This document shows, piece by piece, positions 3,290 through 55,924 of a stretch of DNA of 64,000 bases; the first letter of the stretch is position 1; each line of letters starts with the position of its first letter. The stretch is from positions 18,972 to 82,971 of the forward strand of contig JAMLIC010000006.1 in assembly GCA_023954375.1 (NCBI GenBank), written 5' to 3'. This DNA is from Planctomycetota bacterium. GTDB taxonomy: Bacteria > Planctomycetota > J058. A program made the translations under genes and the position numbers. The notes under the pieces were generated by a model. The model did no database searches. It worked only from the letters and a program-made list of their open reading frames with translations, and was not told where the DNA came from.

Positions 3290-3385
3290 GGGCCGCGGAC
3301 GGCGGCCCCCCGAACCCTCGATCGGGCCGGGCCTCGCGGCCGGGCCCTTCGCTTGCGACGGTGGGCCGCAGAGGGAGGAGTCCCG

Positions 3386-4032
3386 TGAAGACGACGTGTC
3401 AGGAAGTCCCGGCCAAGGCCGCCGAGCTGCGGGTCGCGGTCGGCCCGGCCTTGCTGCCCGCGACGCTCCTCGCGCCGCGGCGGGCCCGCGGCCTCGTCCT
3501 GCTCGTCCAGGCAGAGGGCGGGCGCGGCCCGGCGCACGGCACGGCCGACCTCGCGTCCGCCCTGGCTGCCGACGGCTGGGGGATGCTCGCGATCGACCTC
3601 CTCACCCCGGCCGAGCGCGCGGCGCGCGCCGACGTGGCGCTGCTCGCCGCGCGGCTGGGGCAGGTGACCGCGTGGGTCGACCGGCAGGAGGAGATCGCCG
3701 GCGCGCCCGTCGTGTACGTCGGGGTCGGCCCGGCGGCGGCCGCCGCGCTCGTCGCCGCCGCCTTCCTGGGCGAGCGCGTGCGCGCGGTGATCACGCTCGA
3801 CGGCCGGCCCGACCTGGCGGGGCCGTTCCTCGGCCACGTGCGCGCCCCCACCCTGCTCCTCGTCGGGTCGGGCGCCGACGCGACGACGCGCCAGCTCCAC
3901 CGCCAGGCGGTGACCCTCCTGGGCGGACGGGTCGAGCTCGTGGCCCTCCCGGAGGTCGCGCCGGCGCAGGAGGTGGTCCGGAGGGCGACCGGGTGGCTGC
4001 GGGAGGTTCAAGTCACGGGCTCCCAAGCCTGA
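3386..4032 (+). CDS. alpha/beta hydrolase, dienelactone-hydrolase-like
   Basis: GTG start at 3386 preceded by GGAGG (3375-3381). The product has alpha/beta-fold hydrolase-like features (…VVYVGVGPAAAAALVAAAF…LLLVGSGAD…). The six-frame ORF extends upstream to 3265 but has no SD there. Confidence 0.55.
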
Positions 4033-9534: not shown

Positions 9535-11307
9535 CTACCGCTCGCCGGCGACGGGCAGCGGCGCGGCCCACAGGCGGCCGGCGAAGCCGGCCGTGGCCGC
9601 CTCGACCGGCTGGCCGGCCCGGACCGCCTCGAACGCGGCCAGGGCGTCGTCGAGCGGGGGCAGGTCGTCGTCGAGCGGCCCCTCGCTCGTGAGGCGCACG
9701 AGCCGGCCGGGATGAGCGCGGGCGAGGTGGCAGGCCCAGCAGCCCGCCAGGAGGCACGGCTTCTGGAGCCCGGGGTCGATGAGGATCATGGACTCGAGCC
9801 GGCCCCGGTCGACGCGCAGGAGGAGGCGGTCGGAGCGCAGGCAGCGGATGGTCGTGCGGCCGTCGAGCGCGTCGCGGACGACGGGGTCGTCGCGGGTGCC
9901 GCCCCAGCCGGTGATGACGTCGAGGCCTTCGCTCACGACGACGACCTCGTCAGGCGGGGGGAGGACGGCGCCGTGCGGCAGGCCCTCGATCACCGTGCCG
10001 GGGCGAGCGACGAAGAACGGCTCGCCGAGGAGGCGGGTCGACCAGCGCACCTCGCCCGGCCCCACGTGGACCACGGTCGCGTGGCGGGGCACCTCGTGCT
10101 CACGCCCCCCTGCGCGCACCCGCCCGGCGCGCAGGTCGACCTCGATGCCGCCCGGCTCGCCGAAGGCGCGCGACAGCCAGCCGCCCGCCCGCAGCGAGAC
10201 GGGCTCCGCCGGCGGGTCGACGATGAGCAGGAGGCGCGGCGCGCGCCCGCGGTGCACCAGCCACGCCCGGAGGCCGTGGTGGTCCTCGAGCGTCCCCAGG
10301 CACCCCTCGCGCGTGAGGGTCCGCACCGGCCCCAGCCAGACGCCGGCGAGCGCGAGGGCCGCGGCGGCCGCCCGGAGCCGGCGGCGCCGCACCCGCGCCC
10401 ACGCGGGGACGCCCTCGCCCACGCGCTCGGCCGGCAGCCGCGCGCGGGCGACCTCGAGCAGCCGCCCCACGGCCTCGGCGCCCGGCCGCGCGACGCGGCG
10501 GCGGCCGGAGGCGAGCTCCAGGTAGAGCGCGCCGGCATCCCCGGACAGGCGGGCGACGTCGGACCAGGGCGCCCGGACGGCGCCCACCGCCAGGCCCGTC
10601 CGGCCGAAGTGGACCCGCAGGCGCCGCGGGAGCAGGAGGACGAGGCCGAGCAGGGCTCCGACGAAGAGGAGCGCGCCGCCCGCGACGGGGTCGCCCCCTC
10701 CCACATCGACCAGCACGAGGGAGACGCCGACGACGATGCCGAGCCCGCAGGCGACGACGAGGAGGAGGCCCGCCGTGAGGCCCCGCCCGCCGCTGGCCGT
10801 CCGCCGGTCGCCGTCGAGTCCCACCAGGACCGCGTCGAGGAGGGCGTGGATGCGGGCGCGCTCGGCCGCATCCCGGGCCGGCACCAGCGGCGGGAAGAGC
10901 AGGCGCGAGAGGCGGTCGTAGGTCGCCGGCGCGTCGAGGAGCACGCCCGCCGGCGAGTCCGCGCGCCCGACGATGTCGTCGACGGCGATGACCACCGCGC
11001 CGCGGCGGACGAGCCCGAGCAGCTCGATCACGACCTGGTCGCGGAGCACGGTCGCCCGCGAGAAGCGCCGCGAGGCCCAGGCGAGCAGCGTCACGCTCAC
11101 CCCCAGGGGGGCGAGCCACAGGGCGAGATCGACGAGCTCGGAGACGACCGCCGGCGACGTGAACGCCAGCGCCTCCGCCACCCGCCCCGCGGCCGCGCTC
11201 ACGGGGGAGGCCATGAGCGGCCCGAGGCACGAGCTCAGGAGGAGCGCCGCGAGGGCGAGCCCGGTCGCGCGGTCCAGCCGTCGCTCGAACACCACCCCCT
11301 CGGCCAT
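9535..11307 (-). CDS. hypothetical polytopic membrane protein, first gene of the membrane-protein/recD2/DUF2233 operon
   Basis: 590-aa ORF. Several hydrophobic helices in the N-terminal half, then a soluble region. Stop 11 nt upstream of the recD2 start on the same strand. Confidence 0.5.
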   Translation of the reverse strand: MAEGVVFERRLDRATGLALAALLLSSCLGPLMASPVSAAAGRVAEALAFTSPAVVSELVDLALWLAPLGVSVTLLAWASRRFSRATVLRDQVVIELLGLVRRGAVVIAVDDIVGRADSPAGVLLDAPATYDRLSRLLFPPLVPARDAAERARIHALLDAVLVGLDGDRRTASGGRGLTAGLLLVVACGLGIVVGVSLVLVDVGGGDPVAGGALLFVGALLGLVLLLPRRLRVHFGRTGLAVGAVRAPWSDVARLSGDAGALYLELASGRRRVARPGAEAVGRLLEVARARLPAERVGEGVPAWARVRRRRLRAAAAALALAGVWLGPVRTLTREGCLGTLEDHHGLRAWLVHRGRAPRLLLIVDPPAEPVSLRAGGWLSRAFGEPGGIEVDLRAGRVRAGGREHEVPRHATVVHVGPGEVRWSTRLLGEPFFVARPGTVIEGLPHGAVLPPPDEVVVVSEGLDVITGWGGTRDDPVVRDALDGRTTIRCLRSDRLLLRVDRGRLESMILIDPGLQKPCLLAGCWACHLARAHPGRLVRLTSEGPLDDDLPPLDDALAAFEAVRAGQPVEAATAGFAGRLWAAPLPVAGER

Positions 11308-11492
11308 GCACGGAGCGTAGCGGGCCCGGGCGCGCGCCGCCGGGTCGCCGCGGCGCCCTCGCCCGGCTGCGGCCTCAAGGCGATCGGTCCGGCGCGGCTC
11401 CCGGCCGCTCGCAGGCTGCGTGCGCGCCCGGACGGGATGGCGGAGGATAGGGGGCGCGCCGCGGGCGCGCCGGGCGCGGGCGAGGGGAGCGG

Positions 11493-14236
11493 ATGGCGCG
11501 GCGGGTCGGACCCTACGAGCTCGAGCGCCGCCTGGGCCGGGGCGGCATGGGCGAGGTGTGGGCGGCCGCCCACGTCGAGACCGGCGCGCGGCACGCCCTC
11601 AAGCTGATCGCCCTGTCCGACGCCGACGCGGCGCTGCGCGCCGCGCGCGAGGCCGAGGCGCTGGCCCGCCTCGACGGCCATCCCGGGGTCCTGCGCGTGC
11701 ACAGCGCCTTCGTCGACGGGCCGCGCGTGGTGCTGGCGATGGAGCTGGTCGAGGGGGGCGAGGACCTGCAGGCCCGTCTCGCGCGCGAGGGGCCGCTCGC
11801 GCCGGAGGCGGCCGCGCGCCTGGTGCGCGACGTGGCGCTGGCGGTGCAGCACGCCCACGACCGCGGCGTCCTCCACCGCGACCTCAAGCCGGGCAACGTG
11901 CTCCTCGACCCCGCCGGCGCGGCGCGCCTGATCGACCTCGGGTTGGCGCGGCTGCTCGACGGGCGCTCGCTGACGCGGACGGGCGACGTCCTGGGGACCC
12001 CGGCCTTCATGGCCCCCGAGCAGGCGCTCGGGCGCCCCTGCAATGCGCGGACCGACGTGTTCGGCCTCGGGGCGGTCCTCTTCGCCGCGCTCACGGGGCG
12101 CGCGCCGCGGCAGGGCGCGCGCACGCCGCTCGAGGCCCTGGCCCGGGCGGCCGAGGAGCCGCCGCCGCGGGCGGACGTCGTCCGACCGGGGGTGCCGCCC
12201 GCCCTGGCGGAGGTCGTCGCGCGGGCCACGGCCCTCGACCCGGCGCGCCGGCACGCCTCGGCCGGCGACCTGGCGCGTGACCTGGACGGCTGGCTCCGCG
12301 CGCCCTCGCTCAGCGGCCGGCGCCTGCGGCCCGGGACGGGGCTCGTCGTCCTCGCCGCGGCCGCGGTGACCCTCGCCGGCGCCGCCGCAGGGCTCGCCGT
12401 CCGACGGGTGGCCGGCGCGCGGGACGCCGCCGCGCGGGACGTCGCCGCCGCGGCCGCCTTCGAGCGCGATGTCGTCGCGCCCTGGGAGCTGGGCCTCCGC
12501 GGCCCGCCGCCCGCCCCGGCGGCGCTCCCCGCCCACGTGGCGGCCGCCGCGCGCGGCGCCGCCGCGCTGACGGCCGGAGAGGGGGCGTCGACGCGCGCGC
12601 TGGCGGGCCGGCTGCGGGCGCTCGCGCCGCTCGTCGGGGGCGCGGCGCCGGACGGCCCGGTCGACCCGCCGCTCGCGGCCCTCGTCGAGGCCGTCCTGGC
12701 CGCGGAGCGGGAGGGGGACGCGACCGGCGCGCGGGCCGCGGCGGTCCTGGCGGCGGGCGCCGCCGGCCCCGACGCGGGCGGCGGCGCTGCGCGTGGCGCT
12801 CGCCGCGCTCCGGCGCGCCGGCGACGCGCCGGGGCGGCGGGCGGCGGGCGCCGCGCTGACCCGGCTCCTCGACTCCCTCCCGTCCGGCGACCCGCTCCGC
12901 CCGGAGCGTCGTGGCGGCCGCGGCCGCCGACGGCTGCCAGCTCGCGGGGTCCATCCGCGACAACATCCGGATCGGTCGTCCCGACGCCACCGACGACGAG
13001 GTCGCCGCCGCCCTGGCCCTCGATGCCGTGGCCGCCGCCCTCGGGGACGTGGCCGTCGAGGCGGTCGCGACGGGCCGCGAGGCGGCGCTCACGACGAACG
13101 CGGCGGTCGCGGCGGGGCGGCTGGTCGCCGCCGCGGGCCGCGCCGGCGCGCCCGACGAGGTGCTGGAGCTGGCGCGCGCGCTCGCCGCCGCTGGCCTGGG
13201 TCCCCTCGGCCGCCCCCCGCCCGCCCTGCAGGAGGCCGCGGAGGCCGCCGCCGCCGCGCTGACGCCGGTCGAGGTCCCGAGGCTGCTCAGGCTCGATGTG
13301 GCGTGGAGCCTCGTCCTCGGCGGGGCGCCGCTCGCGGCGCTCGCGCCCCACACCGGCGCTTCGGTCCCGCCCCAGGCGGACCCGACGGTCGACACGCTCA
13401 GGCACCTCGCCCTCACGCGTCGTATGGGCCTCGCCGACCTGCCCGTCGTCGGCGTCAGCACGCTGGAGCGGAGCGCGGCGATGCCGGCGACCCTGCGCCG
13501 ACCGCCCGTGCGCAGCCGGCTCCTGGCGAGCGTCATCCTGACCCAGCACGCGTGGGCCCTCGCGGACGACGAGGCCCTGGACCTCGCCCGGGTCGCGCTC
13601 GGGGAGGCGGCGGGCGCCCACGACGACCTGAGCGCGAGCGACGACGGGGCCGCGCGCCTCGGCGCCGACGGCGAGGTCTCCGCCCGCGTCCTCCAGGCCC
13701 TCGCCCGGCGCGCGCCGCGCGCGCAGGGCCCGCCGGACCTCGCCCGGGCCGTGCTCGCGCGCTGGGAGCGTCCCGATGCAGGGCTCGCGGCGCCGGTCGT
13801 GGGGGCCGCCCTGAACCTCCTGCGGGACCGGGGAGAGGACGTGTGCGCGCGTCGCGCGCGCCTCATCGCCCGGCTGCACGCGGAGGAGGGCGCAAGACCG
13901 CCGGGGGTCCGTGACGACCTCGCGGCCAGCCAGGAGGCCGAGGCGGTGGAGGACCTGCGGGGCGCGGGGCGGCTGGCGGAGGCGATCGCGGCCGCGGAGG
14001 CCCTCCGTCCGAACGCGGCGCCGGAGCCGACCGCGCGCGCGCACGTGGCGGCGGCCGGCGCCTGCCTCGACCAGGGCGGCGCGGACGCGGTCGCGCGGGC
14101 GGAGGGGTGGCTCGAGCGGGCCCGGGCGGTCGGGCCGAGCGAGGGGCGCGGTCCGGAGGAGAACGAGGTGTGGCTCGAGGACGTGACGGGTGGGGCCTAC
14201 AAGCGCCTCGAGCGCCGGCTCGAGGAGGCGCGCTGA
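11493..14236 (+). pseudogene. Ser/Thr protein kinase, paralog A, with C-terminal helical-repeat domain; reading frame disrupted (~12785 and ~12895), so either a pseudogene or sequence errors
   Basis: N-terminal Hanks kinase in frame 0 (11493..~12780: GRGGMGEVW, HRDLKPGNVLL, DLGLA, APE), then a TM helix. Protein similarity to paralog B continues in frame +1 (12793..) and then frame +2 (12911..14236). No single ORF spans the gene. The C-terminal 440 aa align to the paralog B C-terminus. Confidence 0.55.
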
Positions 14237-14275
14237 CCTCGGGAGGTGACCCTCCGCCTCGATGAGGCCGCGCGG

Positions 14276-17206
14276 TCAGCCCCTCCGCCGTCGCCCCTTG
14301 CCGCTCTTCGCCGGCCCACCCGCCCCCGCGAGCGCCGGCTCGGGCGGCGACCAGGCCTCCTCGGGCAGCGGCTCCAGCCCCAGCAGCGGGGCCAGGAACC
14401 GCCCGGTGTGCGAGCCCGGCGTGCGGGCCACGTCCTCGGGCGTGCCGGCGACGAGGAGCTTGCCGCCGCGCTCGCCGCCCTCGGGGCCGAGGTCCACGAC
14501 CCAGTCGGCGGTCTTCACGATGTCCAGGTTGTGCTCGATCACGACGACGGTGTTGCCGGCGTCGACGAGGCGCGAGAGCACGCCCAGGAGCTTCTTGATG
14601 TCGTCGAAGTGGAGCCCGGTCGACGGCTCGTCGAGCACGTAGAGCGTGCGCCCCGTCGAGCGCTTGCCCAGCTCGCGCGCGAGCTTCACCCGCTGCGCCT
14701 CGCCGCCCGAGAGCGTCGGGCTGGGCTGGCCGAGCGGCATGTAGCCCAGGCCCACGTCGACGAGCGTCTCCAGCAGCCGCGCGATCTTCGGGTGGTTCCG
14801 GAACAGCTCGAGCCCCTCGGCCACCGTCATGTCGAGGACCTGCGCGATCGACTTGCCGCGGTAGGTCACGCGCAGGGTGGCGTCGTTGAAGCGCTTGCCG
14901 TCGCACTCCGAGCACGTCACGTAGACGTCGGCCAGGAAGTGCATCTCGATCTTCTTCACCCCCGAGCCCTCGCAGCCCTCGCAGCGGCCGCCCTTCACGT
15001 TGAAGGAGAAGCGGCCCGGCTTGAAGCCGAACGCGAGCGCCTCCGGCAGCCCGGCGTAGAAGTCGCGGACCTCGTCGAAGACCTTCACGTAGGTGGCCGG
15101 GTTGCTGCGCGGCGTGCGCCCGATCGGCTGCTGGTCGATCGCGATCACGCGGTCGATGTGCTCGACGCCGTCGAGCCGGTCGTGCGCGGCCACGTGGACG
15201 GCCTTGTCGGTGAGCTGGCGCTCGAGGCCGGGCAGGAGGATCTGGTTGACGAGCGTCGACTTCCCCGCGCCCGAGCAGCCCGTGACGCACAGGAACACGC
15301 CCAGCGGGAAGGCCGCGTCGACGCCCTGCAGGTTGTTGGCGCGCGCGCCGACGATCCGGAGCTCGCGCCGGGGGTCGACCGGGCGGCGCCGCGGCGGGGT
15401 CGCGATCTCCAGGTCGCCCGACAGGTACCTGCCCGTGAGCGAGCGCGGGTCGGCCTGGAGCTGCGTCGGCGTGCCGGCGGCCATGACCTGCCCGCCGTCG
15501 CGGCCGGCGCCGGGGCCGAAGTCGATGATCCAGTCCGCGCGCTCGATCGTCTCGCGGTCGTGCTCGACGACGATGATCGTGTTGCCCTTGTCGCGCAGGT
15601 GCTCGAGCGTGTTGATCAGCCGCGACGCGTCGCGCGCGTGGAGCCCGATCGACGGCTCGTCGAGCACGTAGACGACGCCCGACAGCTCCGAGCCGATCTG
15701 CGAGGCGAGCTGGATGCGCTGCGACTCGCCGCCCGAGAGCGACGGCCCCGGCCGCGAGAGCGACAGGTAGTCGAGGCCCACGTCCTCGAGGAAGCGCAGG
15801 CGCGCGCGGATCTCCTTGATGAGCTCGGCCGCGATCTGCCGCTGCTCCTTGCCCAGCCCGTCGTGCAGCCCCTCGACCCAGCGAGACGCGTCGCGCACGC
15901 ACATCTCGCAGATCGCGCCCATGGTCTGCCCGCCCAGGCGCACGGCCGCGCTCTCCGGCCGAAGGCGGCTGCCGCCGCAGGCCCCGCAGGGGCGGTAGCT
16001 GTGGAACGAGGCGTAGTACTTCTGCGCGTCCTCGGACTTGGTCTCGAGCAGCCGGCGCTTGAGCTGCGCCAGCACGCCCTCCCACTTCATGCGGTAGGGG
16101 CGCGAGCCGTTCCAGTGGACGCTGATCGACTGCCTGCCCGCGCCGTGGAGGATCACCTCCTGCGCGCGCGCGGGCAGCTTGCGCCACGGCGCGTCGAGGT
16201 CGATCGAGAACTCCTTCGCGATCGCCGCCACGAGCTTCCCGGTCCAGGTGCCGTCGGCCTCGAGCGACTCCCGCGGCCACACGGCCACGGCGCCCTCGCG
16301 GATCGACTTGCTCGCGTCGGGCACGACGAGCGCCGGGTCCATGTCGAGGCTGTGGCCCAGGCCGTTGCACGAGACGCACATGCCCTGCGGCGAGTTGAAC
16401 GAGAACGACTGCGGCGTCAGGTCGGGGAACGACAGCCCGCAGGCGTCGCACGCCATGCGCTCGGAGTGGATCGCCTCGGTCTTCTGGTCGACGTCGACGA
16501 GGATCAGCCGCCCCTGGCCCAGGCGCAGGGCGGTCTCGACGGAGTCGACGATGCGGTTGCGCAGGCTGTCCTTGACGACGAGGCGGTCGACGACCGCCTC
16601 GAGCGTGTGCTTCTCCTTCTTGTTCAGCGCCGCGAGGCCCTCGAGCTCCTTCACCTCGCCGTCGACGCGCACGCGCACGATGCCCTCGCGGCGCAGGACG
16701 GCCAGCTCCTCCCTGTGCTCGCCCTTCCTGTTCTCGATGCGCGGGGCGAGGACGATGAGCTTCTTGCCGGCCGGCAGCGAGGCGATGCGCCGGCTGATCT
16801 GCTGCGCGCTCTGCGACTCGACGAGCTTGCCGCAGGTCGGGCAGTGCTGGACGCCGACGCGCGCGAAGAGCACGCGCAGGTAGTCGTGGATCTCGGTGAT
16901 CGTGCCCACGGTCGAGCGCGGGTTGACCGACGCCGCCTTCTGCTCGACGGCGATGCTCGGCGAGAGCCCCTGGATCTTGTCGTACTTCGGCTTCTCCTTC
17001 TGGCCCAGGAACTGCCGGGCGTAAGCGGAGAGGCTCTCGACGAAGCGGCGGCGGCCCTCGGCGTAGATCGTGTCGATCGCGAGCGTGGACTTGCCCGAGC
17101 CCGACGGCCCGGTGAAGACCACCAGCTTCTTCTTGGGGATCGAGACGTCGATCCCCTTGAGGTTGTGCTCCCTCGCCCCGAGGACGAGGATCTCCTGCGG
17201 CTCCAC
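14276..17206 (-). CDS. uvrA: excinuclease ABC subunit A (UvrA)
   Basis: 976-aa ORF. Two ABC ATPase modules (GPSGSGKSTL, GCSGAGKSTL; LSGGESQR and LSGGEAQR signatures; DEPSIGLH, DEPSTGLH). Zinc-finger cysteines CPTCGK, CDACG, CEGCEG, CSECDG. Convergent with kinase A (39-bp gap containing a GGAGG-TGAC-CCTCC palindrome). Divergent from kinase B (101 bp). Confidence 0.95.
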   Translation of the reverse strand: MEPQEILVLGAREHNLKGIDVSIPKKKLVVFTGPSGSGKSTLAIDTIYAEGRRRFVESLSAYARQFLGQKEKPKYDKIQGLSPSIAVEQKAASVNPRSTVGTITEIHDYLRVLFARVGVQHCPTCGKLVESQSAQQISRRIASLPAGKKLIVLAPRIENRKGEHREELAVLRREGIVRVRVDGEVKELEGLAALNKKEKHTLEAVVDRLVVKDSLRNRIVDSVETALRLGQGRLILVDVDQKTEAIHSERMACDACGLSFPDLTPQSFSFNSPQGMCVSCNGLGHSLDMDPALVVPDASKSIREGAVAVWPRESLEADGTWTGKLVAAIAKEFSIDLDAPWRKLPARAQEVILHGAGRQSISVHWNGSRPYRMKWEGVLAQLKRRLLETKSEDAQKYYASFHSYRPCGACGGSRLRPESAAVRLGGQTMGAICEMCVRDASRWVEGLHDGLGKEQRQIAAELIKEIRARLRFLEDVGLDYLSLSRPGPSLSGGESQRIQLASQIGSELSGVVYVLDEPSIGLHARDASRLINTLEHLRDKGNTIIVVEHDRETIERADWIIDFGPGAGRDGGQVMAAGTPTQLQADPRSLTGRYLSGDLEIATPPRRRPVDPRRELRIVGARANNLQGVDAAFPLGVFLCVTGCSGAGKSTLVNQILLPGLERQLTDKAVHVAAHDRLDGVEHIDRVIAIDQQPIGRTPRSNPATYVKVFDEVRDFYAGLPEALAFGFKPGRFSFNVKGGRCEGCEGSGVKKIEMHFLADVYVTCSECDGKRFNDATLRVTYRGKSIAQVLDMTVAEGLELFRNHPKIARLLETLVDVGLGYMPLGQPSPTLSGGEAQRVKLARELGKRSTGRTLYVLDEPSTGLHFDDIKKLLGVLSRLVDAGNTVVVIEHNLDIVKTADWVVDLGPEGGERGGKLLVAGTPEDVARTPGSHTGRFLAPLLGLEPLPEEAWSPPEPALAGAGGPAKSGKGRRRRG

Positions 17207-17307
17207 GCCGACCCCCTGCTGTGCGGCTCGATCTCGGCGGCGCGGCCGGCCGAGATGGCGGAAGATAGCACGGGCCGTCGCGAGCGCGACGGGCGCGGAC
17301 GGGGCGG

Positions 17308-20070
17308 ATGGCGCGGCGGGTCGGACCGTACGAGCTCGAGCGCCGCCTGGGCAAGGGCGGCATGGGCGAGGTGTGGGCGGCCGCCCACGTCGAGACCGGC
17401 GCGCGGCACGCCCTCAAGCTGATCGCCCTCACCGACGCCGCCGCGGCGCTGCGCGCCGCGCGCGAGGCCGAGGCGCTGGCGCGCCTCGACGGCCACCCGG
17501 GGGTCCTACGCGTGTTCAGCGCCTTCGTCGACGGGCCGCGCATGGTCCTGGCGATGGAGCTGGTCGAGGGCGGCGAGGACCTCGAGGCGCGCCTGGCGCG
17601 CGAGGGCCCGCTCGAGCCGGCGGCCGCCGCGCGCCTCGTCCGCGACGTGGCGCTCGCGGTGCAGCACGCGCACGACCGCGGCGTCCTCCATCGCGACCTC
17701 AAGCCGGGCAACGTGCTCCTCGACGCCGCCGGCGCGCCGCGCCTCGTCGACCTGGGCCTGGCGCGGCTGCTCGACGGGCGCTCGCTGACGCGGACCGGCG
17801 ACGTCCTGGGCACGCCCGCGTTCCTCGCGCCCGAGCAGGCGCTCGGGCGCGCGAGCGACGCGCGGACCGACGTCTTCGGGCTCGGGGCGCTCCTGTTCGC
17901 CGCGCTCACCGGGCGCGCGCCGCGGCAGGGCGCGCTGCTCGAGGCGCTCGCCCGCGCGGCCGACCAGCCGCTGCCCCGGACGGACGTCGTCCGACCGGGG
18001 CGTGCCCGCGGCGCTCGCCGACGTCGTCGCCCGGGCGACGGCGCTCGAGCCGGCGCGCACGCCACGGCCGGCGACCTGGCGCGCGACCTCGAGGCCTGGC
18101 TGGCCGGCGCCGGCCTGCCCGGGCGGGCGGTGGCGCGGCGCGGCCCTCGGGGTCGGGACGCTGCTCGCGCTGGCCGCGGCCGGCGGCGCGGCCTGGATCG
18201 CCGTCGCCCGCCGCGAGGCGGCGCGCGGCCGCCGCCGCCGCGACCTTCGAGCTCGAGGTCGTGGCGCCGTGGGCCCGGGCTCGGCGAGCCGGCCGCCCCG
18301 AGGCGCTCGCCGCGCACACGGCGGCGGCGGCGCGCGCGGCCGCCGCCCTCGCCGGTGAGGAGCGCGCCAGGCCCGCGCCGTCGCCGCGCGCCTGGCCGCG
18401 CTCGGGCCGCTTCGTCGGCGCGGCCGCGCCGGCCGTGGCGCCCGACCCGGCGGTCGGCGCGCTGGTCGAGGCGGTCCTCGCCGCGGAGCGGGGCGGCGAC
18501 CCCGACGGCGCCCACGCGGGCCGGGTCGCCGCCGCGGTCGAGGCGGGCGCGCCGCCCGCGCTCGCCCGGGCGGCCGCGGCGCGCGTGGACTTCGCGGCGC
18601 TGCGCGCGGCTCCCGACCGCGCGGCGCTCGCGCGCGGCCGCGGCGCTGACCCGCCACCTCCGCGCCCTCGCGGCCGACGGGCGCCCCCTCCCGGGCCTCG
18701 AGGCGGCGGCCACCCGGGAGCTGCTCGCGGCCGCCCGGGCCGACGTCGCCCGCCTGGTCGGCCTCCAGCCGCACGCCCGCGCGAGCGGGGCCGACGCCGA
18801 GGTCGCCGCGGCGCAGGCGCTCGACGCCCTCGCCGGCGCGCTCGGGCCGGCCGCCGTCGCGGCGGTGGGCTCGACCCGGCTGGCCGCGCTCGCGGACCAC
18901 GCGGAGGAGGCCGCGCGGCTGCTGGTCGAGCGGACGCGCCGCGGCGGGCGGCACGAGGCGCTGGAGCACACGCGCGCGCTCTCGGCCGCGGCCCTCGGCC
19001 CGACCGCTCGCCCGCCGCCAGCCATGCGCAAGGCCCTGGAGCGCGCCGCCGCCTCGCTGGCAGGGGCCGGGCCCGACCGGCGCCCGACCGAGCTGGCGGC
19101 GCTGCTGACGCTCGACGCCGCCTGGTGCCTGGTGCTCGGCGGCGAGCGGCTGGAGGCGCTCGAGCACCACTTCGAGGCGGGCGGCTGGCGCCTCCCGGGT
19201 CAGGACGACGAGGAGCTCGAGGCCCTCCGCCACCTCTCCCTGGCCCACCGGTTCGGCCACACCGACCTGGCGCTCGTCGACTGGGAGGCGTCGCCCGCGC
19301 TGCGCCGGTCGGCGGCCATGCCGGCCTCCATGCGACGCCCGCCGCTCCGCAGCCGGCTCGTGGCGGTCGCGCTCGTCCTCAACCCGCCGGGCGACCTGAG
19401 CGACGCCGAGCTGGACCTGGCGCGCGTCGCCCTGGGGCTGGCGCCCGGGGCCCGCGACGACTTCCTCGTGACGGTCAACGAGGCGACGCGGCTCGCCGCC
19501 GACGGCGAGCTCTGCGCGCACGTCCTGCGCGCCCTCCGGGCGCGCGCGGCGGGGTCCTCGGCGGTCGCGGAGGCCCTGCCCGACCTGGCCCGGGCGGTCC
19601 TCGCCCGCTGGGAGGAGGGCCGGGACGCCGGCCTGGCGGCGCCGGTCGTCGGGTTCGCCCTGAACCTCCTGCGCGAGCGCGGCGAGGACGTGGCCGCGCG
19701 CCGCGAGCGGCTGATCGCGCGGCTCGTCGCCGAGGAGAGCGAGCGGCCGTCGGGGCTCCGCCAGGACATGGCGACGATCCAGCGGGCCGAGCGTGTCGAC
19801 GACCTGCGCCGCGCCGGCCCTGGCAGCGAGGCGCTCGAGCGGCCCGACGCGCTGCCCGAGGACATGGCCGCGCGCGCGTTCGTGGCGGCCGGGCACGCGT
19901 CCCTGAACCTCGGCGGCCGGGGCGCGGCCGACCGGGCGCGCGCGTGGGCGGAGCGCGCCGAGGAGCTGGCGCGGGCGGTCGGCGATGGGGACTGGACGGT
20001 GTGGCTCGAGCACGCGTCCAGGCGGGCGTACGGCCGCCTCACGCGTCGGCTGAAGGAGGCGGCGCGCTGA
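17308..20070 (+). CDS. Ser/Thr protein kinase, paralog B, with C-terminal helical-repeat domain (single 920-aa ORF, but the central ~650 nt appears frame-shifted relative to the homologous segments)
   Basis: Kinase domain ~90% nucleotide-identical to paralog A. Segments homologous to A's TM helix and linker are encoded in the other two frames between ~18000 and ~18650 (ORFs 18002..18358 and part of 17070..20102). The called frame there is Arg/Pro/Ser-rich and lacks the TM helix. The C-terminal 470 aa are in frame and homologous to A. Confidence 0.6.
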   Translation: MARRVGPYELERRLGKGGMGEVWAAAHVETGARHALKLIALTDAAAALRAAREAEALARLDGHPGVLRVFSAFVDGPRMVLAMELVEGGEDLEARLAREGPLEPAAAARLVRDVALAVQHAHDRGVLHRDLKPGNVLLDAAGAPRLVDLGLARLLDGRSLTRTGDVLGTPAFLAPEQALGRASDARTDVFGLGALLFAALTGRAPRQGALLEALARAADQPLPRTDVVRPGRARGARRRRRPGDGARAGAHATAGDLARDLEAWLAGAGLPGRAVARRGPRGRDAARAGRGRRRGLDRRRPPRGGARPPPPRPSSSRSWRRGPGLGEPAAPRRSPRTRRRRRARPPPSPVRSAPGPRRRRAPGRARAASSARPRRPWRPTRRSARWSRRSSPRSGAATPTAPTRAGSPPRSRRARRPRSPGRPRRAWTSRRCARLPTARRSRAAAALTRHLRALAADGRPLPGLEAAATRELLAAARADVARLVGLQPHARASGADAEVAAAQALDALAGALGPAAVAAVGSTRLAALADHAEEAARLLVERTRRGGRHEALEHTRALSAAALGPTARPPPAMRKALERAAASLAGAGPDRRPTELAALLTLDAAWCLVLGGERLEALEHHFEAGGWRLPGQDDEELEALRHLSLAHRFGHTDLALVDWEASPALRRSAAMPASMRRPPLRSRLVAVALVLNPPGDLSDAELDLARVALGLAPGARDDFLVTVNEATRLAADGELCAHVLRALRARAAGSSAVAEALPDLARAVLARWEEGRDAGLAAPVVGFALNLLRERGEDVAARRERLIARLVAEESERPSGLRQDMATIQRAERVDDLRRAGPGSEALERPDALPEDMAARAFVAAGHASLNLGGRGAADRARAWAERAEELARAVGDGDWTVWLEHASRRAYGRLTRRLKEAAR

Positions 20071-20806
20071 CCGGGCGGCGCGCCGGGCGCGGCGCCCGGT
20101 AGCGCCGGTGCGCCTTCGCGACCAGCCGGCGGTCGGCGCCGAGGAGCGCGCGCGCGATCGCCGGGCGCAGCCCGGCCGCCTCGAGGTGGCGCAGGACCGC
20201 CTCGCGCTCGCGGACCTTGGCGGCGAGCTGCGTCAGGCGCAGCGTCTCGGGCGACGGCGCCAGCGACGTGAAGCCGGCCCGGTCGAGGCGCGCCCCCCAG
20301 CCGTCCAGCCACGGCTCGAGGCCAAGGACGAGCGCCTGGTCGAGGTCCTCGCGGTCGCGCAGGTCGGCGCGCCCGCGGCCGCGGACGGCCTCCTGGGCGA
20401 CCATGGCCGCGACGGTGGTGATGGCCTTCGCCAGGGCGTCGACCTCCACCAGCGCCTTGATCGGGTCCTGGATCGTGTAGACGACGTTCACGTCGAGGTC
20501 GTAGACGAACCCGTCGGCGGTGGTCGCCCGCTGCTTCGGCACGTCGATCGTGTGGCTGCGGGTGTGGACCTTCTTCACCTGGTGGATGTAGGGGATCAGC
20601 GGGTGGAACCCCGGCTCCAGCACGCGCCGCACGCGCCCCAGCCGGAAGAGCACGCCCCGGTGGCCGGAGTCGATCACCACGCCCATGAGGCCGACGAAGG
20701 CGGCGACGATGATGATCGCCTCCTTCGGGTTCTCCTTCGCCCACGCCCACAGGACGCCCCCCACGGCGCGGCCGGTGTCGAGGGCCGACTGGAGCCACGC
20801 GTCCAC
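20039..20806 (-). CDS. SPFH/band-7 domain protein (HflK/HflC-like), membrane-anchored
   Basis: N-terminal TM helix (AIIIVAAFVGLMGVVI), then a band-7 core (…VYDLDVNVVYTIQDP…). ATG overlaps the stop of the upstream SPFH gene (ATGA). 3' end overlaps kinase B convergently by ~30 nt. Confidence 0.7.
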   Translation of the reverse strand: MDAWLQSALDTGRAVGGVLWAWAKENPKEAIIIVAAFVGLMGVVIDSGHRGVLFRLGRVRRVLEPGFHPLIPYIHQVKKVHTRSHTIDVPKQRATTADGFVYDLDVNVVYTIQDPIKALVEVDALAKAITTVAAMVAQEAVRGRGRADLRDREDLDQALVLGLEPWLDGWGARLDRAGFTSLAPSPETLRLTQLAAKVREREAVLRHLEAAGLRPAIARALLGADRRLVAKAHRRYRAPRPARRPVSAPPPSADA

Positions 20807-40086: not shown

Positions 40087-43000
40087 CTACCCCCGCGCCA
40101 GCTTCTTCCTCAGCTCCAGGTACCCCGGCGACACCGAGAACGCGAGCAGGTCGCGCAGCTCGGGGACGTCGCGGAACGCCTTGACCACGCCCTCGGTCTT
40201 CGTCGGCACGCGGCCGCGCAGCGACACGTTCGTGGCCAGGATCGCCTTCACGGCGGGCAGGGGGCCGCCGGCGGCGAGGAGGCCGGCGCGGCTGGCGGCG
40301 AGGAGGACGCCCTGGCGGAAGCCCTCGAGGTCGAGCTGGTCGCGCCCGCGCCAGAGCGCCTCGTGGACCGGCGCCAGCTCGCGCAGGACCTCGGAGGCCT
40401 TGCCCGCGGCCTTGACCATGGCGCGCACGGCCTTGTCGTCGTCGCCCTTGAACGCGCGCCCCGCCTCGCACGCCTTGAGGAGGCCCAGGAGGAGGCCGCG
40501 CACCTGCTCGAGCGGCAGGGCGCGGAAGACCTCGAGGCCGAGCTTGAGCGGGGCCACGGCGCGGGCGATCACGAAGGCCTTCTCGGGCTCGGAGAGCCCG
40601 GCGAACACCTCGGGGCAGAGGATGAGCGACGGCGTCTTCGAGTGGCCGAGGACCGGCTCGGGGCGGCGCCAGTCGGGCATCCAGTAGATGTCGAGCTGCG
40701 AGATGTCGAGCAGGTCGCACACCCGCTTGACCAGCCGGTGCTCGGGGAAGAGGTCGCCCTCGAGCGTGAGGCGCGCGCTCAGCCAGCCGATCCCGTGGCT
40801 CTTGAGGTCGTCGGGCACCTGCCGGAGGAGGAGCCCGCCGGCCGCGCGGACGAGGTCGCCGAGCGGCCCCTTGCAGGCGTCGGGCAGGAGCCGGGCGGCG
40901 AAGGCCTCGTCCTTCAGCCGCCCGCGCAGCGACGGGAGCTGACCGGCGGCGGCCGCGACCGCCCCCTCCTCCTCGGCCGTCGTCGCGCGCAGGACCGACA
41001 GCGCCTGCAAGGCCTGCCCCAGCGGGTCGGCCCTGCCGCCGGCGCGCCAGCCGTCGGCGAGGGCGCGGTAGGACTCGACCAGCAGCGGGTCCTCGGCCAG
41101 GAGCTCGCGCTGGACGCGCTCGATCCCGGCCACGTCCTTCAGCTCCAGGTAGAGCCGCGACAGCGCCGCCCGCGCGCCCGAGTGCCCGGGCTCGAGCTCG
41201 AGGACCCGCTCGTACTCCGCGGCCGCCTCGGGGGCGAGCCGCTGCTGGGCCAGGAGGTCCGCGCGGCGCAGGCGCAGCGCCGCCTCGTCGCCCTTGCCCC
41301 GCAGGGCGTCGGCCGCGACCCCGAGGGCGCGCGCCTGCGCCTCGAGGTCGCCCTCCGCCTCGAGCAGCCGCAGGAGCGAGTCGAGGGTGTGCCGCTCGCG
41401 CGGGTCGAGCACGAAGGCCTGGTGGAAGCAGCGGCGGGCGAGCTTGCGCTGCTTGAGGCGGTCGCGCACGACGCGCGCCAGGTTGGCGTAGAGCTCCGCG
41501 CGCTTGCGCCGGTCGGTCTCCAGCTCGATCGCCCGCGTCAGCTGCCGGACGGCGGCGCTCCAGCGCTCGGCGCGCCCGTGGATCTCTGCCAGGCGCCGCG
41601 CCGTGCGCGCCCGGTGCTCGCCGTCGATCGCGAGCGTCGCCTGGAGGTGCGCCGCGGCGGCGTCCGCGTCGCCGAGCGCGAGCTCGCAGACGTCGGCGAG
41701 CGCGAGCCGCGCCTGCACCTCGACCTGCGGCGGCGCCCCCGCGAGCGCGTACTCCAGGTGCCGCCGCGCCTCGCGCGGGTCCTTGCTCTCCAGCAGCTTG
41801 CCCAGCTCGAGCTGCGCCTGGGGGCTCCGCGGCGCCACGCGCAGGCCGCTCCGGTAGAGCTCGAGCGCCCGGTCGGTCTCCTTGAGCTTCGACAGCACGC
41901 GCGCGAGCACGAGCTGATGCTCGGCCCGGGCCACCGGCGGCCGCGTCTGGGCCACCAGCTCCTCGTAGACGCCGCGCGCCGCCGCCCAGCCGCCGCCCTG
42001 GACGCACAGCCGGCCCAGGTCCTCGAGCGCCGCGAGGTGGTCGGGGACGAGCTCGAGCGCCTGCCGATAGCTCTGGGCGGCCCCCTCGGCCCGGCCGGCG
42101 CGCTCGAGGAGCTGGCCCCGGGCCCACAGGAGCTCGGCCCCGCGCTGGGGGTCCTTCGGCAGCTCCGGCGAGCTGGCGACCCGCTCGAGGCAGGAGAGCG
42201 CGGCCGCCGCGTCGTCGGCGGCCCACGCCAGCTCGGCGAGCGCCGCGAGCGCCGGGAACAGGGTCGGCGAGCGCTGCAGCGCCTGCTCGTAGCGCTGGCG
42301 CGCGGCGGGGAACTGCCCGAGCGCCTCCCGCCGCACGTCGCCCGCGCGCACGAGCGCCTGCGCGGCGTCGCGCGGGTCCTGCTCGAGGTCGGCGACCTGG
42401 TCCTCGAGGCGCGCCAGCGCGTCCGCCGCCGACTCGTCGGCGCCGAGCGCGCCGGCGCCGCGGGCGTGCAGCGCGCGCGCCAGGCCCTTGAGCGCCGGCA
42501 GGTGCGTCGGCGCCAGGCCGATCGCCTCGCGGTAGCGCGCCTCCGCGCCCGCCACGTCGCCTCGCCGCTCGAGGAGCCCGGCGATCCTGGCGAGCAGGTC
42601 GCCGCGCTTGAACTCGGTCCGCGCGTGGGCGACGGCCTGCTCGTAGGTGCCGAGGAGGTCGTCCCACAGCCCGGCCGCCTCCTGCGCCGCCCCGAGCTGC
42701 GCGAGCGCCGCCTCGTGCGCCGGGTCGGCCTTGAAGGCCTCCGCCAGGGCCTCGAGCGCCTGCGCCTCCTTGCCCTTGCCCGGGCGGCGCCGCAGGACCT
42801 CGACCACCTCGACGAGGGCGTCCGCCCGCTCGGTCCCCTCGCGCAGCCCGGCGAGCCGCTTGAGCGCCCGGACCAGCGCCGCCTCGCCCTTGGCGTCGCG
42901 CGCCGTCCGCCGCAGGACCGTCACCGCGAGCAGCGCCGCCTCGATGCAGCGCGCGTCCTGCCCCAGCGCCTCCTCCGCGGCCTTCAGCGCCTCCTCCGGC

Positions 43001-46000
43001 CGGCCCAGCCGCTCGGCGTTGACCCGCGCCAGCTCGAGGCGCAGCCCGACCGTCTCCGGCCCGCGCGCCCGCGCCAGCCGCCGGTCGATGATCTGCGCCA
43101 GCTCGTCCCACTCGCCCAGGTCGCGCAGGAGGTCGGTGAGCGCCGCCAGCGCCTCCTCGTCCTGCGGCGCGAGCTCGAGCGCCGCGCGGTAGGCGGCCAG
43201 CGCGTCCTGCTTGCGGTAGAGCTTCGACGAGAAGACGGCGCCCAGGCGCTTGTGCAGGCGCACGGCCTCGCCGGCGTCGCCGCACAGCGGCAGGTCGCGC
43301 CGCAGCGTGTCGACGAGCCCCGACCAGTCGCCGCGCGCCTCCTGCACGCGCGCGAGGTCGCCCAGGAGGTTCCGGTCCTTCGGCGCGAGGTGGCTCGCCT
43401 CGCCGAAGAAGCGCGCGGCCGTGAGCAGGTCGCCCAGCTTCTCCTCGGCGAGGTGGCCGGCCCGGCGCAGGCGCGCCTCGCGCTGGCGCGTCCCCTTCAC
43501 CAGCCCGATCTCGAGGCGGAGCGTGTCGAGGAGCTCCGGCCAGCGCTCCGTCTTCTGGTACAGGTCGCGCAGGGCCTCGACCGCCTCCAGGCCGGCGGGG
43601 TTCAGCGTGACCGCGCGCTGGAGCGCCCGGGCCGCCTTCTCGGCGTCATCGAGGCGGTCGCGCAGGACCCGCCCGAGGAGCACGAGCGCGTCGTAGGCCC
43701 GCGGCCCGCGGCGCCCCGCCTGGCCCTCGTAGAAGGTCACCAGCTCGGCCCACCGCGCCTGCCCCGAGAGGAGGCGCTCGAGCTCCGAGGCCACCCGCGC
43801 GTCGTCGGGGACGAGCTGGTGCAGCCGCTGCAGGACCTCGATCGCCTGGTCGTGGCGCCCCAGCTTCTCCTCGAGCAGCGCGGCGCGCTCGAGGAGCAGG
43901 TCGCGCGCGTGCGGGGCGCGGCCGTCGGCCGCGCGCTGCTCGAGCACGTGCGCCAGCTCGGCGTGGCGCCCGGCGAGCCGGTAGGCCGCCTCGAGCGCCT
44001 CGAGCGCCTGCGCCAGGAGCGGGCCGCGCCCGAGCTCGCGGGCCGTGACGAAGGCGTCGATGGCCTCCGACAGCCGGCCGAGCTTCATCTGGTGCCGCCC
44101 GAGCTTGAGCGCGGCCTGGGCCCGCTGCGCGTCCTTGCGCGCCAGCGCCAGGAGCCGCTCGAGGACGACCAGCAGGAGGGCGTCGTCCTCGACCTCGGCG
44201 CACAGCGGCTCGAGCGCCTCCCAGGCCTCCTGGTCGGCCGGGTTCGTCGCCGCCGCCTCGCGGTAGGCGGCGATCGCGCCCGGCGCGTCGGCGAGGCGCA
44301 GGGCGCGGATCTTCGCCGCCCGCCGGAGCATCCAGCCGGCGCGCGCCGGGTCGTCGACGGCCCGGGCCAGGAGCACCGTCGCGTCGGCGAGCTCGCCCCA
44401 CTGGCTGAGCTTCTCGGCCACGCGCGCGTAGGTGCCCAGCGCGTCCGCGTCGGACGGCATGAGCTCGCACGCGGTGCGCGCCAGCCCCAGCGCCCGCTGG
44501 AGCGACGCCTGGCGCGCGTCGCCGGCCGCCTTCTCTGCCAGCGCCTCGCGCAGGCGCGCCGCCTCCAGCGCGAGCAGCCGTCGCCGCTCGGCCTCGGTGA
44601 CGAGCCCCAGCTCCTGCTCGAGCGTCTCGGCCAGCCCCTCGTCGTCGCCGAGCGCGCGCAGGCCCCGGGCCAGCCCGCGGACCGCCTCGAGGTCGTCGGG
44701 CGCGTCGGCCAGGACCTTGCGGAAGCAGGCCACCGCCCGGCGCAGGTCGGAGAGCGCCTCCTCGTACAGGTGCGCCAGCTCGCGGCGCGCCTCGAGGCGG
44801 TCGACCGGCGACGGGGTGTGCTCGGCCAGCGCCTCGAGCGCCTGCGCCAGGGCGCGGAAGTCGAGCAGCTCGCGGGCGACGTCGGCCATCCCGCGCAGGG
44901 CGACGAGCGACACGGCGTCGAGGTGCAGGGCCTCGCCGTAGGCCTTCGCCGCGCCCTCGAGGTCGCGCAGCTCGTGGCGGAGCTGGCCCACGTGGGTCTT
45001 CAGCCACACGAGCCGCCCGCGGTCGACCTTCGCCGTCGCCTCGAGCTCGCAGACGCGGACGACCTCGGCCAGGCGGCCGGCCTGCCGGTGGATCGCCGCG
45101 AGCGCCCGGGCCGCGGGCACGCTCTGCGGGTCGAGCGCGAGCGCCCGCTCGAACGCCCGCGCCGCCTCCTCCTCCTGGCGCAGCTCGCGCTGGAGCAGGT
45201 GCCCCAGCTCGGTCTCCGCCGCGGCGCGGTCGAGCGCGCCGAGGTCCTCGCGGCCGGCCAGCGCGGACAGCGCCTGCGCCAGGTCGGCGTGGCGCCCCGC
45301 CTGGCGGTAGAGGCGGACGAGCGCCCGCAGGACGCGCACGAGGAGCTCGCCCGGCACCCCGGCGCGCCCGGCCCGCTCGCGCGCGGCCTCGAGCCGGGCG
45401 GTCGCCGCATCGGGCGCGCCCTGCTCCTCGTGGACGGCGGCCTCCTCGGCGAGCGCCTGGACCGCCTCGAGCTCGGTCGTGGCCCGGGCCGCCCGCTCGG
45501 CGAGCAGCCGCGCCAGCTCGGGCAGTCGCCGCCCGGCGCGGTAGAGCGCCTCGAGCCCCGCCCGCGCGGCGTCGTCGCCCGCGTCCGCCTCGAGCGCCTC
45601 GAGCCAGCAGCCCTCGGCCGCCGCCGGGTCGCCGAGCGAGCCGCGGTGCAGCTCGGCCATGCGGTGGCGCAGGCGCTGCACCTCGGCCGCGGCGCCCTCC
45701 TTGCCCAGCCGGCGCGCCTCGCCCTCGAGGTAGCCGAGGAGCTCCCGGTGCCGGGCCTCGCGCAGGTAGAGCCCCTCGAGCGCCTGGCGCACGAGCCCGT
45801 CCTGCGGGTCGCGCCGGTGGAGCTCGGCGTAGACCTCGATCGCCCGCCCGGGCGTGTAGACCGGTCCGCTCGCCAGCTCGCCCACGCCCTTGAGGAGGAG
45901 CGCCTCGTCGCCCGGGTCGCGGGCGTGCTTCAGCGCGCGCTCGGTGGCGTCGAGGAGCGCCGACGCGTCGCCGGCCGCCTTGGCCAGGCGCATGAGCAGC

Positions 46001-55786: not shown

Positions 55787-55805
55787 GCGCTCTCAGCCAT
55801 CGATT

Positions 55806-55896: not shown

Positions 55897-55924
55897 CATG
55901 TGAGCCCACACGGTCGGCCCTCGA

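Follow-up and report, generated by a model that had tools for sequence, protein, structure and literature searches.

Clustered frame breaks in two paralogous receptor kinase genes of a Planctomycetota contig coincide with GC maxima and are probably consensus errors

Two diverged paralogs of one membrane-anchored Ser/Thr kinase of about 915 amino acids, here called A and B, flank uvrA in the 64-kb stretch of Planctomycetota DNA that was analysed as a whole (the window), and both are broken in frame. Nine frame-breaking indels, of which A has two and B seven, are packed into about 770 nt, and every one of them lies where GC peaks in the window (87-93%). We regard these breaks as local consensus indel errors at extreme GC rather than as biology, with a probability of roughly 0.65.

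Results

Both paralogs show the same layout: an N-terminal Hanks-type kinase is followed by one transmembrane (TM) helix, a linker rich in Ala and an all-alpha domain of about 480 amino acids that is specific to the lineage. The Pkinase family (PF00069) matched A with 144 bits (E=5e-42) and B with 137 bits, the gathering-score cutoff being 31.7, and the translations contain the kinase motifs GRGGMGEV as the Gly-rich loop, HALKLI with the VAIK-type Lys, HRDLKPGN as the catalytic loop, DLG, and MAPE or LAPE for the APE motif. A and B resemble the PknB-like bacterial Hanks-type receptor kinases, known for one TM helix and an extracytoplasmic sensor domain, in the GxGxxG loop (GRGGMGEV), HRDLKPGN and the APE motif of the Pkinase domain, and in the single hydrophobic helix (predicted from the translation of A to be GLVVLAAAAVTLAGAAAGLAV) that follows the kinase and precedes a large C-terminal domain. 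However, DLG stands in both as a variant of the usual Mg-binding DFG motif, and the C-terminal domain belongs neither to PASTA, TPR or WD40 nor to any other Pfam family. An exhaustive HMMER search for this domain among 1.84 billion representatives returned nothing but the fragment of A itself and a single Logan ortholog, and its AlphaFold2 model was all-alpha with a poor pLDDT of 57.7.

The frame path of A was followed in several ways. A hidden Markov model (HMM) of GC3 periodicity assigned A to frame 0 (coordinate modulo 3) over 11486-12773, to frame 1 over 12774-12906 and to frame 2 over 12907-14234. A tblastn comparison of the three-frame translations of B with A was uninformative because the Ala/Arg/Gly/Pro composition gave strong matches in every frame, and a custom protein-to-DNA alignment with frameshift states was therefore used instead, with the paralog B protein as the guide for A. 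This alignment placed exactly two frameshifts in A, each of one surplus base, at ~12756 and ~12904, positions that are uncertain by a few bases owing to neighbouring alignment gaps; their number and placement were unchanged at a frameshift penalty of -14 or -25. Finally, the three segments so delimited (Table 1) were scored in their assigned frames. Segments 1 and 3 exceeded shuffled controls against B with z=13.5 and z=7.0, respectively, in those frames only, and segment 2, scored against B and against the related contig L005 described below, gave z=8.8, a score reached by 0 of 1000 shuffles, with z<0 in its other frames. The remaining two frames of each segment scored against B at or below the shuffled mean. 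As a separate observation, the first break can equally be read as, for example, a change of -11 nt relative to B, and a DNA alignment has an 11-nt gap in A at this place.

The frame path from 0 to +1 to +2 (net +2) put forward in a preliminary description of this DNA is thus borne out by the GC3 model, by the segment scores and by the alignment with frameshift states. Its boundaries (~12780, 12793 to ~12895, and 12911) correspond to landmarks of ORFs and start codons but lie 7-37 nt off the alignment junctions, and the homopolymer-like runs in which it placed the breaks proved to be G/C runs, but short ones (GGG, CCCGG) and not long homopolymers. Past the break, the frame-0 ORF of A (11493-13262) goes on as Arg/Pro junk. 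The open stretch of frame 1 spans 12571-13914, whereas that of frame 2 begins no earlier than 12860, after a TGA at 12857-12859, and reaches the stop at 14236. The two breaks flank the most GC-rich 150-nt interval of the 64 kb (12707-12856, 92.7% GC).

Table 1. Coordinates of the kinase paralogs, their frame breaks and the intervening uvrA gene in the window
Feature	Position	Strand	Description
Paralog A, whole span	11493-14236	+	Two +1 frame changes needed for one protein
A segment 1	11493-12755	+	Frame 0 (coordinate modulo 3); Hanks-type Ser/Thr kinase domain, TM helix, first part of Ala-rich linker
A frame break 1	12750-12762	+	Surplus base at ~12756: GTCCTGGCGGCG[G]GCGCCGCC; GCGGCG[G]GCGCC
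A segment 2	12757-12903	+	Frame 1; 49 codons: APPAPTRAAALRVALAALRRAGDAPGRRAAGAALTRLLDSLPSGDPLRP
A frame break 2	12898-12910	+	Surplus base at ~12904: CCGCTCCGCCCG[G]AGCGTCG; context CGCCCG[G]AGCG
A segment 3	12905-14236	+	Frame 2; lineage-specific all-alpha C-terminal domain, stop at 14236
uvrA	14276-17206	-	Intact, 976 aa, between the kinase copies; Pfam UvrA_inter, UvrA_DNA-bind; MCO5166398.1
Paralog B	17308-20070	+	One open 920-aa ORF, identical to NCBI MCO5166399.1 (100% to P0001)
B frame-broken zone	17998-18618	+	Seven frame-breaking indels by frameshift-state alignment

Paralog B, to which the preliminary description had compared A, is not an intact reference, and the region 17990-18660 flagged there for inspection turned out to hold all seven of its indels: ~17998 (+1), 18053 (+2, i.e. 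-1), 18106 (+1), 18227 (+1), 18360 (+2), 18413 (+1) and 18618 (+1). Since these sum to 9, or 0 modulo 3, the ORF stays open and the breaks are hidden. The frame of B is nonetheless internally shifted relative to A and to its orthologs. Kinase subdomain XI, present in A, is absent from the annotated frame of B, which reads RARGARRRRRPGDGARAGA there, and is restored only after correcting the frameshifts at 17998 and 18053; the TM helix is likewise missing from the annotated frame. Both elements are common to A, to the intact homologs P0005-P0007 and to corrected B. The Pfam Pkinase match of corrected B was no longer than before and thus lends the correction no further support. The broken zone has 87.4% GC and includes two 90% intervals (18093-18242 and 18488-18637).

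Outside these zones the reading frames are regular. The remaining ~4.7 kb of A and B contains no frame-breaking indel, and no frame excursion was detected by the GC3 HMM in the other genes of the 64 kb, including a 13.2-kb ORF at 79% GC. Two stretches suspected of frame anomalies proved normal: a C-terminal tail rich in Pro and Gly accounts for 63271-63465, and a small gene of its own, in the same frame, for 2346-2696. The uvrA gene, taken as a local quality control, shows 95% nucleotide identity to two related contigs (L002 and L004) with its frame intact. The 150-nt intervals reaching 90% GC make up only 0.15% of the window. Three other intervals with 88-90% GC (10356-10505, 12497-12646 and 49837-49986) are free of frame breaks, which shows that a break need not follow from extreme GC alone. 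The tracts at the nine indel sites measure just 1-4 nt.

The coding signal persists in the shifted (ancestral) frames, where GC3 is 0.95-1.0, and correcting the frameshifts yields translations free of stop codons. Omega between A and B in the ancestral frame was 0.23 for the shifted subdomain XI of B, 0.50 for the TM helix and linker and 0.55 for the middle segment of A, against 0.64-0.88 for the in-frame C-terminal domain; between B and its ortholog in L005 it was 0.40 in the shifted zone against 0.65-0.78 in the in-frame C-terminal domain. Omega close to 1, stops and a lost codon-position composition, which would mark relaxed constraint, are all missing from the disabled stretches, a result with which a very recent pseudogenization may still be compatible. 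An open ORF is uninformative at 87% GC because stop codons are rare there in every frame.

For comparison we used three Illumina (Logan) contigs, L005, L006 and L008, which come from a related population at ~85-92% nucleotide identity (~92% locally) and not from the same genome. All three are single-frame through the equivalents of B positions 18360, 18413 and 18618 (three of the seven B sites are covered), where the window departs from them by -1, +1 and -2 nt, and their translations agree with corrected B. They are also single-frame at the positions homologous to both breaks of A, to which they are paralogous and not orthologous. Each of the five short-read contigs with a B ortholog breaks off somewhere from 18316 to 18935 of the window, within or beside the extreme-GC linker, which fits short-read dropout in the linker. 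L005 carries a private G-run insertion of its own in the kinase gene, which may be a real variant or an error, so indels in this gene are not confined to the assembly of the present metagenome-assembled genome (MAG); a second MAG of the lineage (L001) is broken in the same manner where kinase and TM helix meet, resulting in an annotated 1562-aa fusion.

A and B are accessory genes whose presence or absence is polymorphic among close relatives: where uvrA is 95% identical, L004 is without A, and L002 and L003 are without both A and B. The spacers that replace them hold no kinase remnants, so insertion and deletion of A and B are not distinguishable. Searches of genome and metagenome contigs and of proteins found no ortholog of A and no second assembly of this genome. 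In the contig searches the automatic patterns were low-complexity and a degenerate pattern built on the RSAAMPA..RRPP motif had 0 matches in the genome and metagenome collections. No contig was recorded as encoding P0001 or UvrA, and the protein searches returned nothing beyond the proteins of the window itself and a single Logan fragment.

Discussion

A local error is favoured by the clustering of the indels at GC maxima, by the clean rest of the window and by the continuous frames of independent B-ortholog contigs; confinement to hard-to-sequence GC in an otherwise clean contig is the pattern that an artefact would leave. As to technical cause and sequencing platform, we infer the following. 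The contig, metagenome-assembled (NCBI MAG 'Planctomycetes bacterium', locus tags M9894_), would retain residual errors of 1-2 nt; short reads would drop out at 87-93% GC and leave the consensus neither supported nor polished; and noisy or low-coverage data would then leave small indels in the extreme-GC stretch and nowhere else. Small-indel frameshifts that need short-read polishing are documented for long-read genome and metagenome assemblies (PMC9262707; bioRxiv 10.1101/2021.08.23.457338). The present breaks resemble the indels of long-read or low-coverage assemblies, at which short-read polishing and frameshift correctors such as proovframe are aimed, in that they measure 1-2 nt, split or fuse ORFs with codon structure intact, lie where polishing data are poor and are missing from the short-read contigs of relatives. 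Unlike the usual assembly errors, they do not occur at homopolymers genome-wide but in two zones (~150 and ~620 nt, 87-93% GC) of two paralogs.

The strongest competitor, unlikely in our judgement yet deserving real weight, is that A and B are genuine and very recent pseudogenes, with slippage indels in the GC-rich low-complexity linker of dispensable genes. Their accessory status and the fast evolution of the family (C-terminal omega 0.6-0.9) make relaxed selection and real decay plausible, and the polymorphic presence of the genes among close relatives, the weak purifying selection on the C-terminal domain (omega 0.64-0.88), the private G-run frameshift in the Illumina contig L005 and the break at the same junction in another MAG all speak for it. 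GC-rich Ala/Gly-coding repeats are, moreover, intrinsically indel-prone, as in the mycobacterial PE_PGRS genes, and this proneness would favour decay. Like the pseudogenes of bacterial duplicated genes, A and B are disrupted in frame by indels, and close relatives can dispense with them; unlike such pseudogenes, they lack a signature of relaxed selection, stops and any larger deletion, and have indels only at GC maxima. Decay would have to account for nine independent small indels that all lie within ~770 nt of extreme-GC zones and come without a single nonsense mutation or large deletion, for an undiminished codon-position GC signal and for an omega no higher in the shifted than in the in-frame stretches. 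After a first inactivating frameshift later ones would be expected over the whole gene length, whereas all seven B indels fall within 22% of the gene (probability ~3e-5 under a uniform distribution).

The preliminary description had named pseudogene and sequencing error as alternatives, and both still stand, but no longer as equally live: the GC clustering, the clean window and the continuous B-ortholog frames appear to favour error. Its suggestion that one copy decayed after duplication is disfavoured, since both copies are affected and only in the extreme-GC stretch, with no stops in the ancestral frames and with omega of 0.23-0.55 there versus 0.64-0.88 in the C-terminal domain.

It is highly improbable that the indels are real in another sense, the extreme-GC Ala/Gly/Arg-coding linker being an indel hotspot that time and again throws the sensor domain out of frame and brings it back in natural populations. 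If this were true, it would represent a frameshift-driven mechanism of on/off switching or diversification that needs no long repeat tract, and the breaks in L001 (the second MAG) and L005 (Illumina) would be further instances.

We give very little credence to the annotation being right, with A a split gene that works as a 589-aa kinase and a separate C-terminal-domain protein, and the linker of B a real 200-aa Arg/Pro-rich disordered region produced by frameshifts that compensate one another. Both readings are open ORFs called by PGAP, and the B indels, at 0 modulo 3, keep kinase and C-terminal domain in frame; but open ORFs carry no information at this GC content, a sum of 0 modulo 3 has a chance probability of 1/3, the annotated B lacks the subdomain XI and TM helix of A, P0005-P0007 and corrected B, and GC3 periodicity, omega and orthologs all follow the ancestral frames. 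The least credible reading is that the frames are decoded or switched biologically, whether by programmed ribosomal frameshifting, by slippage during transcription or by phase variation at simple repeats; the location of frame changes at short G/C runs speaks for it and nothing further. As read from the sequence, no slippery heptamer, stop or hungry codon lies at ~12756 or ~12904, the 1-4-nt tracts are far below the homopolymers of contingency loci and no long homopolymer or tandem repeat is present, seven events, some forward and some backward, would be required in B, the local DNA fold (12700-12950) is no more stable than shuffled DNA (z=-1.15), and the orthologs are single-frame at homologous positions, so that there is no conserved frameshift signal and biological decoding is, on this comparison, effectively refuted.

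Whatever their cause, the breaks have shaped the annotation. NCBI splits A into two coding sequences of 589 and 312 aa; the first (MCO5166396.1) ends in a junk tail of ~167 aa and the second (MCO5166397.1, hypothetical protein) covers only 13298-14236 and is a domain fragment. The B entry (MCO5166399.1, 920 aa) seems intact, yet its residues ~230-445 (~215) are out-of-frame Arg/Pro junk and its TM helix is gone, and MBX3470645.1 (1562 aa), which belongs to the related MAG, falsely joins two kinases. Entries of this kind pollute protein databases and distort domain-architecture statistics and the prediction of disordered linkers. The case is a worked example of extreme-GC MAG stretches carrying clustered and probably erroneous indels that annotation pipelines leave unflagged. 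Where genomic GC exceeds 75%, an open ORF does not prove that the frame is correct, and such frame errors can be detected cheaply from codon-position GC periodicity. As for the organism itself, A and B are most likely two ordinary paralogous receptor kinases, and their breaks of little biological importance.

Kinase paralogs and their coding sequences

The product of each copy is a Hanks-type Ser/Thr kinase (Pfam Pkinase, 144 bits for paralog A and 137 bits for paralog B) with the motifs GRGGMGEV, HRDLKPGN, DLG and APE, after which come a single hydrophobic helix, an Ala-rich linker and a ~480-aa domain. This C-terminal domain had no Pfam match, and its AlphaFold2 model, built on a two-sequence alignment, was all-helical with a pLDDT of only 57.7. 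When 1.84 billion cluster representatives were searched exhaustively with HMMER, the only significant matches were the fragment of A itself and one Logan ortholog, so the sensor-like domain is an orphan of this lineage. A and B are homologous over 11422-14238 and 17240-20072, an interval that opens about 70 nt before the ATG and closes with the stop codon. At the 5' end, these ~70 nt included, nucleotide identity reaches 97%; further on it drops to ~60-70%, while dS climbs from 0.18 to ~0.5 along the gene. This gradient suggests a 5' gene conversion of the promoter and the kinase-domain portion (11422-12300 vs 17240-18100) between otherwise old paralogs. Between recD2 and paralog A lies a 590-aa ORF (9535-11307, minus strand) without a Pfam match, which is kept beside recD2 in the related assembly L002 (592 aa) and missing from L003; it holds a 90% GC window (10356-10505) with its frame unbroken.

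The sequence comes from an NCBI metagenome-assembled genome (MAG; locus tags M9894_). Its mean GC of ~77% leaves long ORFs open in most frames of both strands, and for this reason codon-position GC periodicity (~0.97 GC at position 3, ~0.5 at position 2) was chosen as the main coding signal and cast as a 7-state HMM. For paralog A the HMM gave frame 0 (coordinate modulo 3) at 11486-12773, frame 1 at 12774-12906 and frame 2 at 12907-14234. A dynamic-programming aligner of protein to DNA, written for this purpose and treating frameshifts as explicit states, took a B-derived protein as guide and placed exactly two frameshifts in A, each of one surplus base; these were unaltered at frameshift penalties of -14 and -25. 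The upstream, middle (49 codons) and downstream segments matched B in their own frames only (z=13.5, 8.8 and 7.0); none of 1000 shuffles reached the score of the middle segment, and in their two other frames the segments scored at or below the shuffled mean. The frame-0 ORF extends to 13262 as junk rich in Arg and Pro, and a TGA at 12857-12859 closes frame 2 upstream. By HMM, frameshift alignment and segment z-scores, the path 0, +1, +2 traced through the linker of A in the preliminary description is thus correct, and its coordinates hold to within 7-37 nt.

The disruption reported there for A extends to paralog B, which was deposited as an intact kinase and is not intact. Seven frameshifts were needed to align the corrected A protein (translated after undoing its frameshifts) to B DNA, and the HMM recovered most of them independently at low switching penalty. 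They sum to 9 (0 mod 3), so that the C-terminal domain returns to the kinase frame and a single 920-aa ORF stays open. Residues ~230-445 of MCO5166399.1 are out-of-frame Arg/Pro junk. Kinase subdomain XI (PGVPAALADVVARATALEPA.HATAGDLARDLE in corrected B; PGVPPALAEVVARATALDPARRHASAGDLARDLD in A and similar in the intact homologs P0005-P0007) and the TM helix (GAALGVGTLLALAAAGGAAWIAVA) are both lost in the annotated B frame.

Coordinates and sequence context of annotated genes, frame breaks and indels
Feature	Position	Description
MCO5166396.1	11493-13262	Kinase, 589 aa; first of two CDS annotated for paralog A
MCO5166397.1	13298-14236	Hypothetical, 312 aa; second CDS annotated for paralog A
MCO5166398.1	14276-17206	uvrA, minus strand
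MCO5166399.1	17308-20070	Paralog B, 920 aa
A break 1	~12756	GCGGCG[G]GCGCC; frameshift-aware alignment
A break 2	~12904	CGCCCG[G]AGCG; frameshift-aware alignment
B frameshifts	17998 (+1), 18053 (+2), 18106 (+1), 18227 (+1), 18360 (+2), 18413 (+1), 18618 (+1)	Alignment of corrected A
Window indel, -1 nt		GGTGA-GGAG vs GGCGACGAGG (Logan contigs)
Window indel, +1 T		GCTTCG vs GC-TCG (Logan contigs)
Window indel, -2 nt		CGA--CCGCG vs CGACGCCGCC; three contigs concordant
MBX3470645.1, kinase 1	7991-8894 of L001	
MBX3470645.1, C-terminal domain of kinase 1	8895-10411 of L001	Other frame
MBX3470645.1, last part	10412-12682 of L001	Second kinase gene; the three parts together form the single annotated ORF

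Signs of decay are absent from the ancestral frames: the shifted frames keep a GC3 of 0.95-1.0, and the corrected translations are free of stop codons. Nei-Gojobori omega between A and B in the ancestral frame was 0.23 for B's shifted subdomain XI, 0.50 for the TM plus linker, 0.55 for A's middle segment and 0.64-0.88 for the in-frame C-terminal domain. Between B and its short-read ortholog L005 it was 0.40 in the shifted zone and 0.65-0.78 in the in-frame remainder.

GC context and internal controls

All nine indels fall within GC maxima of the window. The two breaks of A bracket its top 150-nt GC window (12707-12856, 92.7%), and the broken zone of B (17998-18618) averages 87.4% GC and includes 18093-18242 and 18488-18637, both at 90%. 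The frame is intact in some other windows with 88-90% GC, so extreme GC alone is not sufficient. Every other gene of the 64 kb kept to its frame, also when the HMM penalty was set permissively; 63271-63465 proved to be a Pro/Gly-rich tail and 2346-2696 a small gene in the same frame. The 13.2-kb ORF at 40087-53277 (79% GC), which served to gauge assembly quality within the window, is perfectly continuous. This 4396-aa product on the minus strand, MCO5166416.1, is deposited as a 'hypothetical protein' and has many TPR-family Pfam matches.

Comparison with related sequences

Related assemblies were reached by looking up the clusters of two neighbouring proteins, UvrA and SPFH. L002 (GCA_019636275.1) and L003 (GCA_024711045.1; uvrA 92-95% identical at the nucleotide level in both) carry neither kinase; L004 (GCA_026184275.1; uvrA 95%) lacks A and holds the start of B before its contig ends; L013 lacks both. 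No kinase remnants were found in the spacers that replace A or B, and at the place of B a 193-aa membrane protein is encoded in L002 and L013. A and B are therefore accessory genes, polymorphic for presence beside uvrA in this lineage (uvrA 92-95% identical across the four relatives). Within the spacer replacing A in L004, a ~130-nt stretch (3328-3465) is 79% identical to intergenic DNA at 55802-55931, with a second match of 49 nt (90%) nearby in opposite orientation; this may be a small dispersed repeat.

Logan short-read contigs (SRR129083xx runs, SRR17973841) carry SPFH and the 3' portion of an ortholog of B. All five B-ortholog contigs (L005-L010) end at the equivalent of 18316-18935, in or beside the extreme-GC linker, which fits a short-read coverage dropout at ~90% GC. 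By frameshift-aware alignment, L005, L006 and L008 keep a single continuous frame across the equivalents of 18360, 18413 and 18618 and likewise across the homologous positions of the two breaks in A; they agree with the corrected B translation, and their DNA (~92% identity) differs from the window there by three simple indels. One extra G is private to L005 (SRR12908314; ~1083, reverse complement; GGGG vs GGG in L006, L007, L008 and L010) and splits the ORF of the B ortholog in L005 alone, its sibling contigs being 98.6-99.9% identical. No ortholog of A was found by protein searches or by searches of genome and metagenome contigs.

A comparable case occurs in L001 (GCA_019636275.1, JAHBXY010000118.1; 8001-12689), where the annotated 1562-aa kinase MBX3470645.1 (P0003) spans more than one frame and is a false fusion. 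The break falls at the same kinase/TM junction, and the symptom is the same in this second MAG of the lineage. By eye, the 1342-aa JGI protein P0002 resembles a similar tandem-kinase read-through.

Origin of the indels

The indels are best explained by local consensus (assembly) errors, to which we assign a probability of roughly 0.65. This reading is favoured over decay by the nine small indels within ~770 nt with none in the other ~4.7 kb of both genes, the lack of nonsense mutations and larger deletions, the undiminished ancestral coding signal, the strict location at GC maxima in an otherwise clean contig, and the single-frame short-read orthologs. The contig could plausibly have been assembled from noisy or low-coverage data, and loss of short reads at 90% GC would have left this region without polishing. 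Frameshifts from such indels are well documented (PMC9262707; bioRxiv 10.1101/2021.08.23.457338). The main rival holds that two dispensable, fast-evolving genes were genuinely inactivated, very recently, at a GC-rich linker prone to indels; it is kept alive by the accessory status of A and B and by the private indel of L005, and we consider it unlikely, if a serious contender. A functional split gene or Arg/Pro linker was rejected as highly improbable. Programmed frameshifting or phase variation was rejected too, as marginally less probable still. No slippery site was found, the tracts are just 1-4 nt, seven events in both directions would be required in B, the orthologs are single-frame, and the DNA forms no special structure (z=-1.15).

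Pseudogene and sequencing error, which the preliminary description held equally live, both stand as candidates, but assembly error now carries more weight. Nothing biologically new emerges; the practical gain is that frame artefacts are recognised in deposited protein records, three of them for the window and one for a related MAG.
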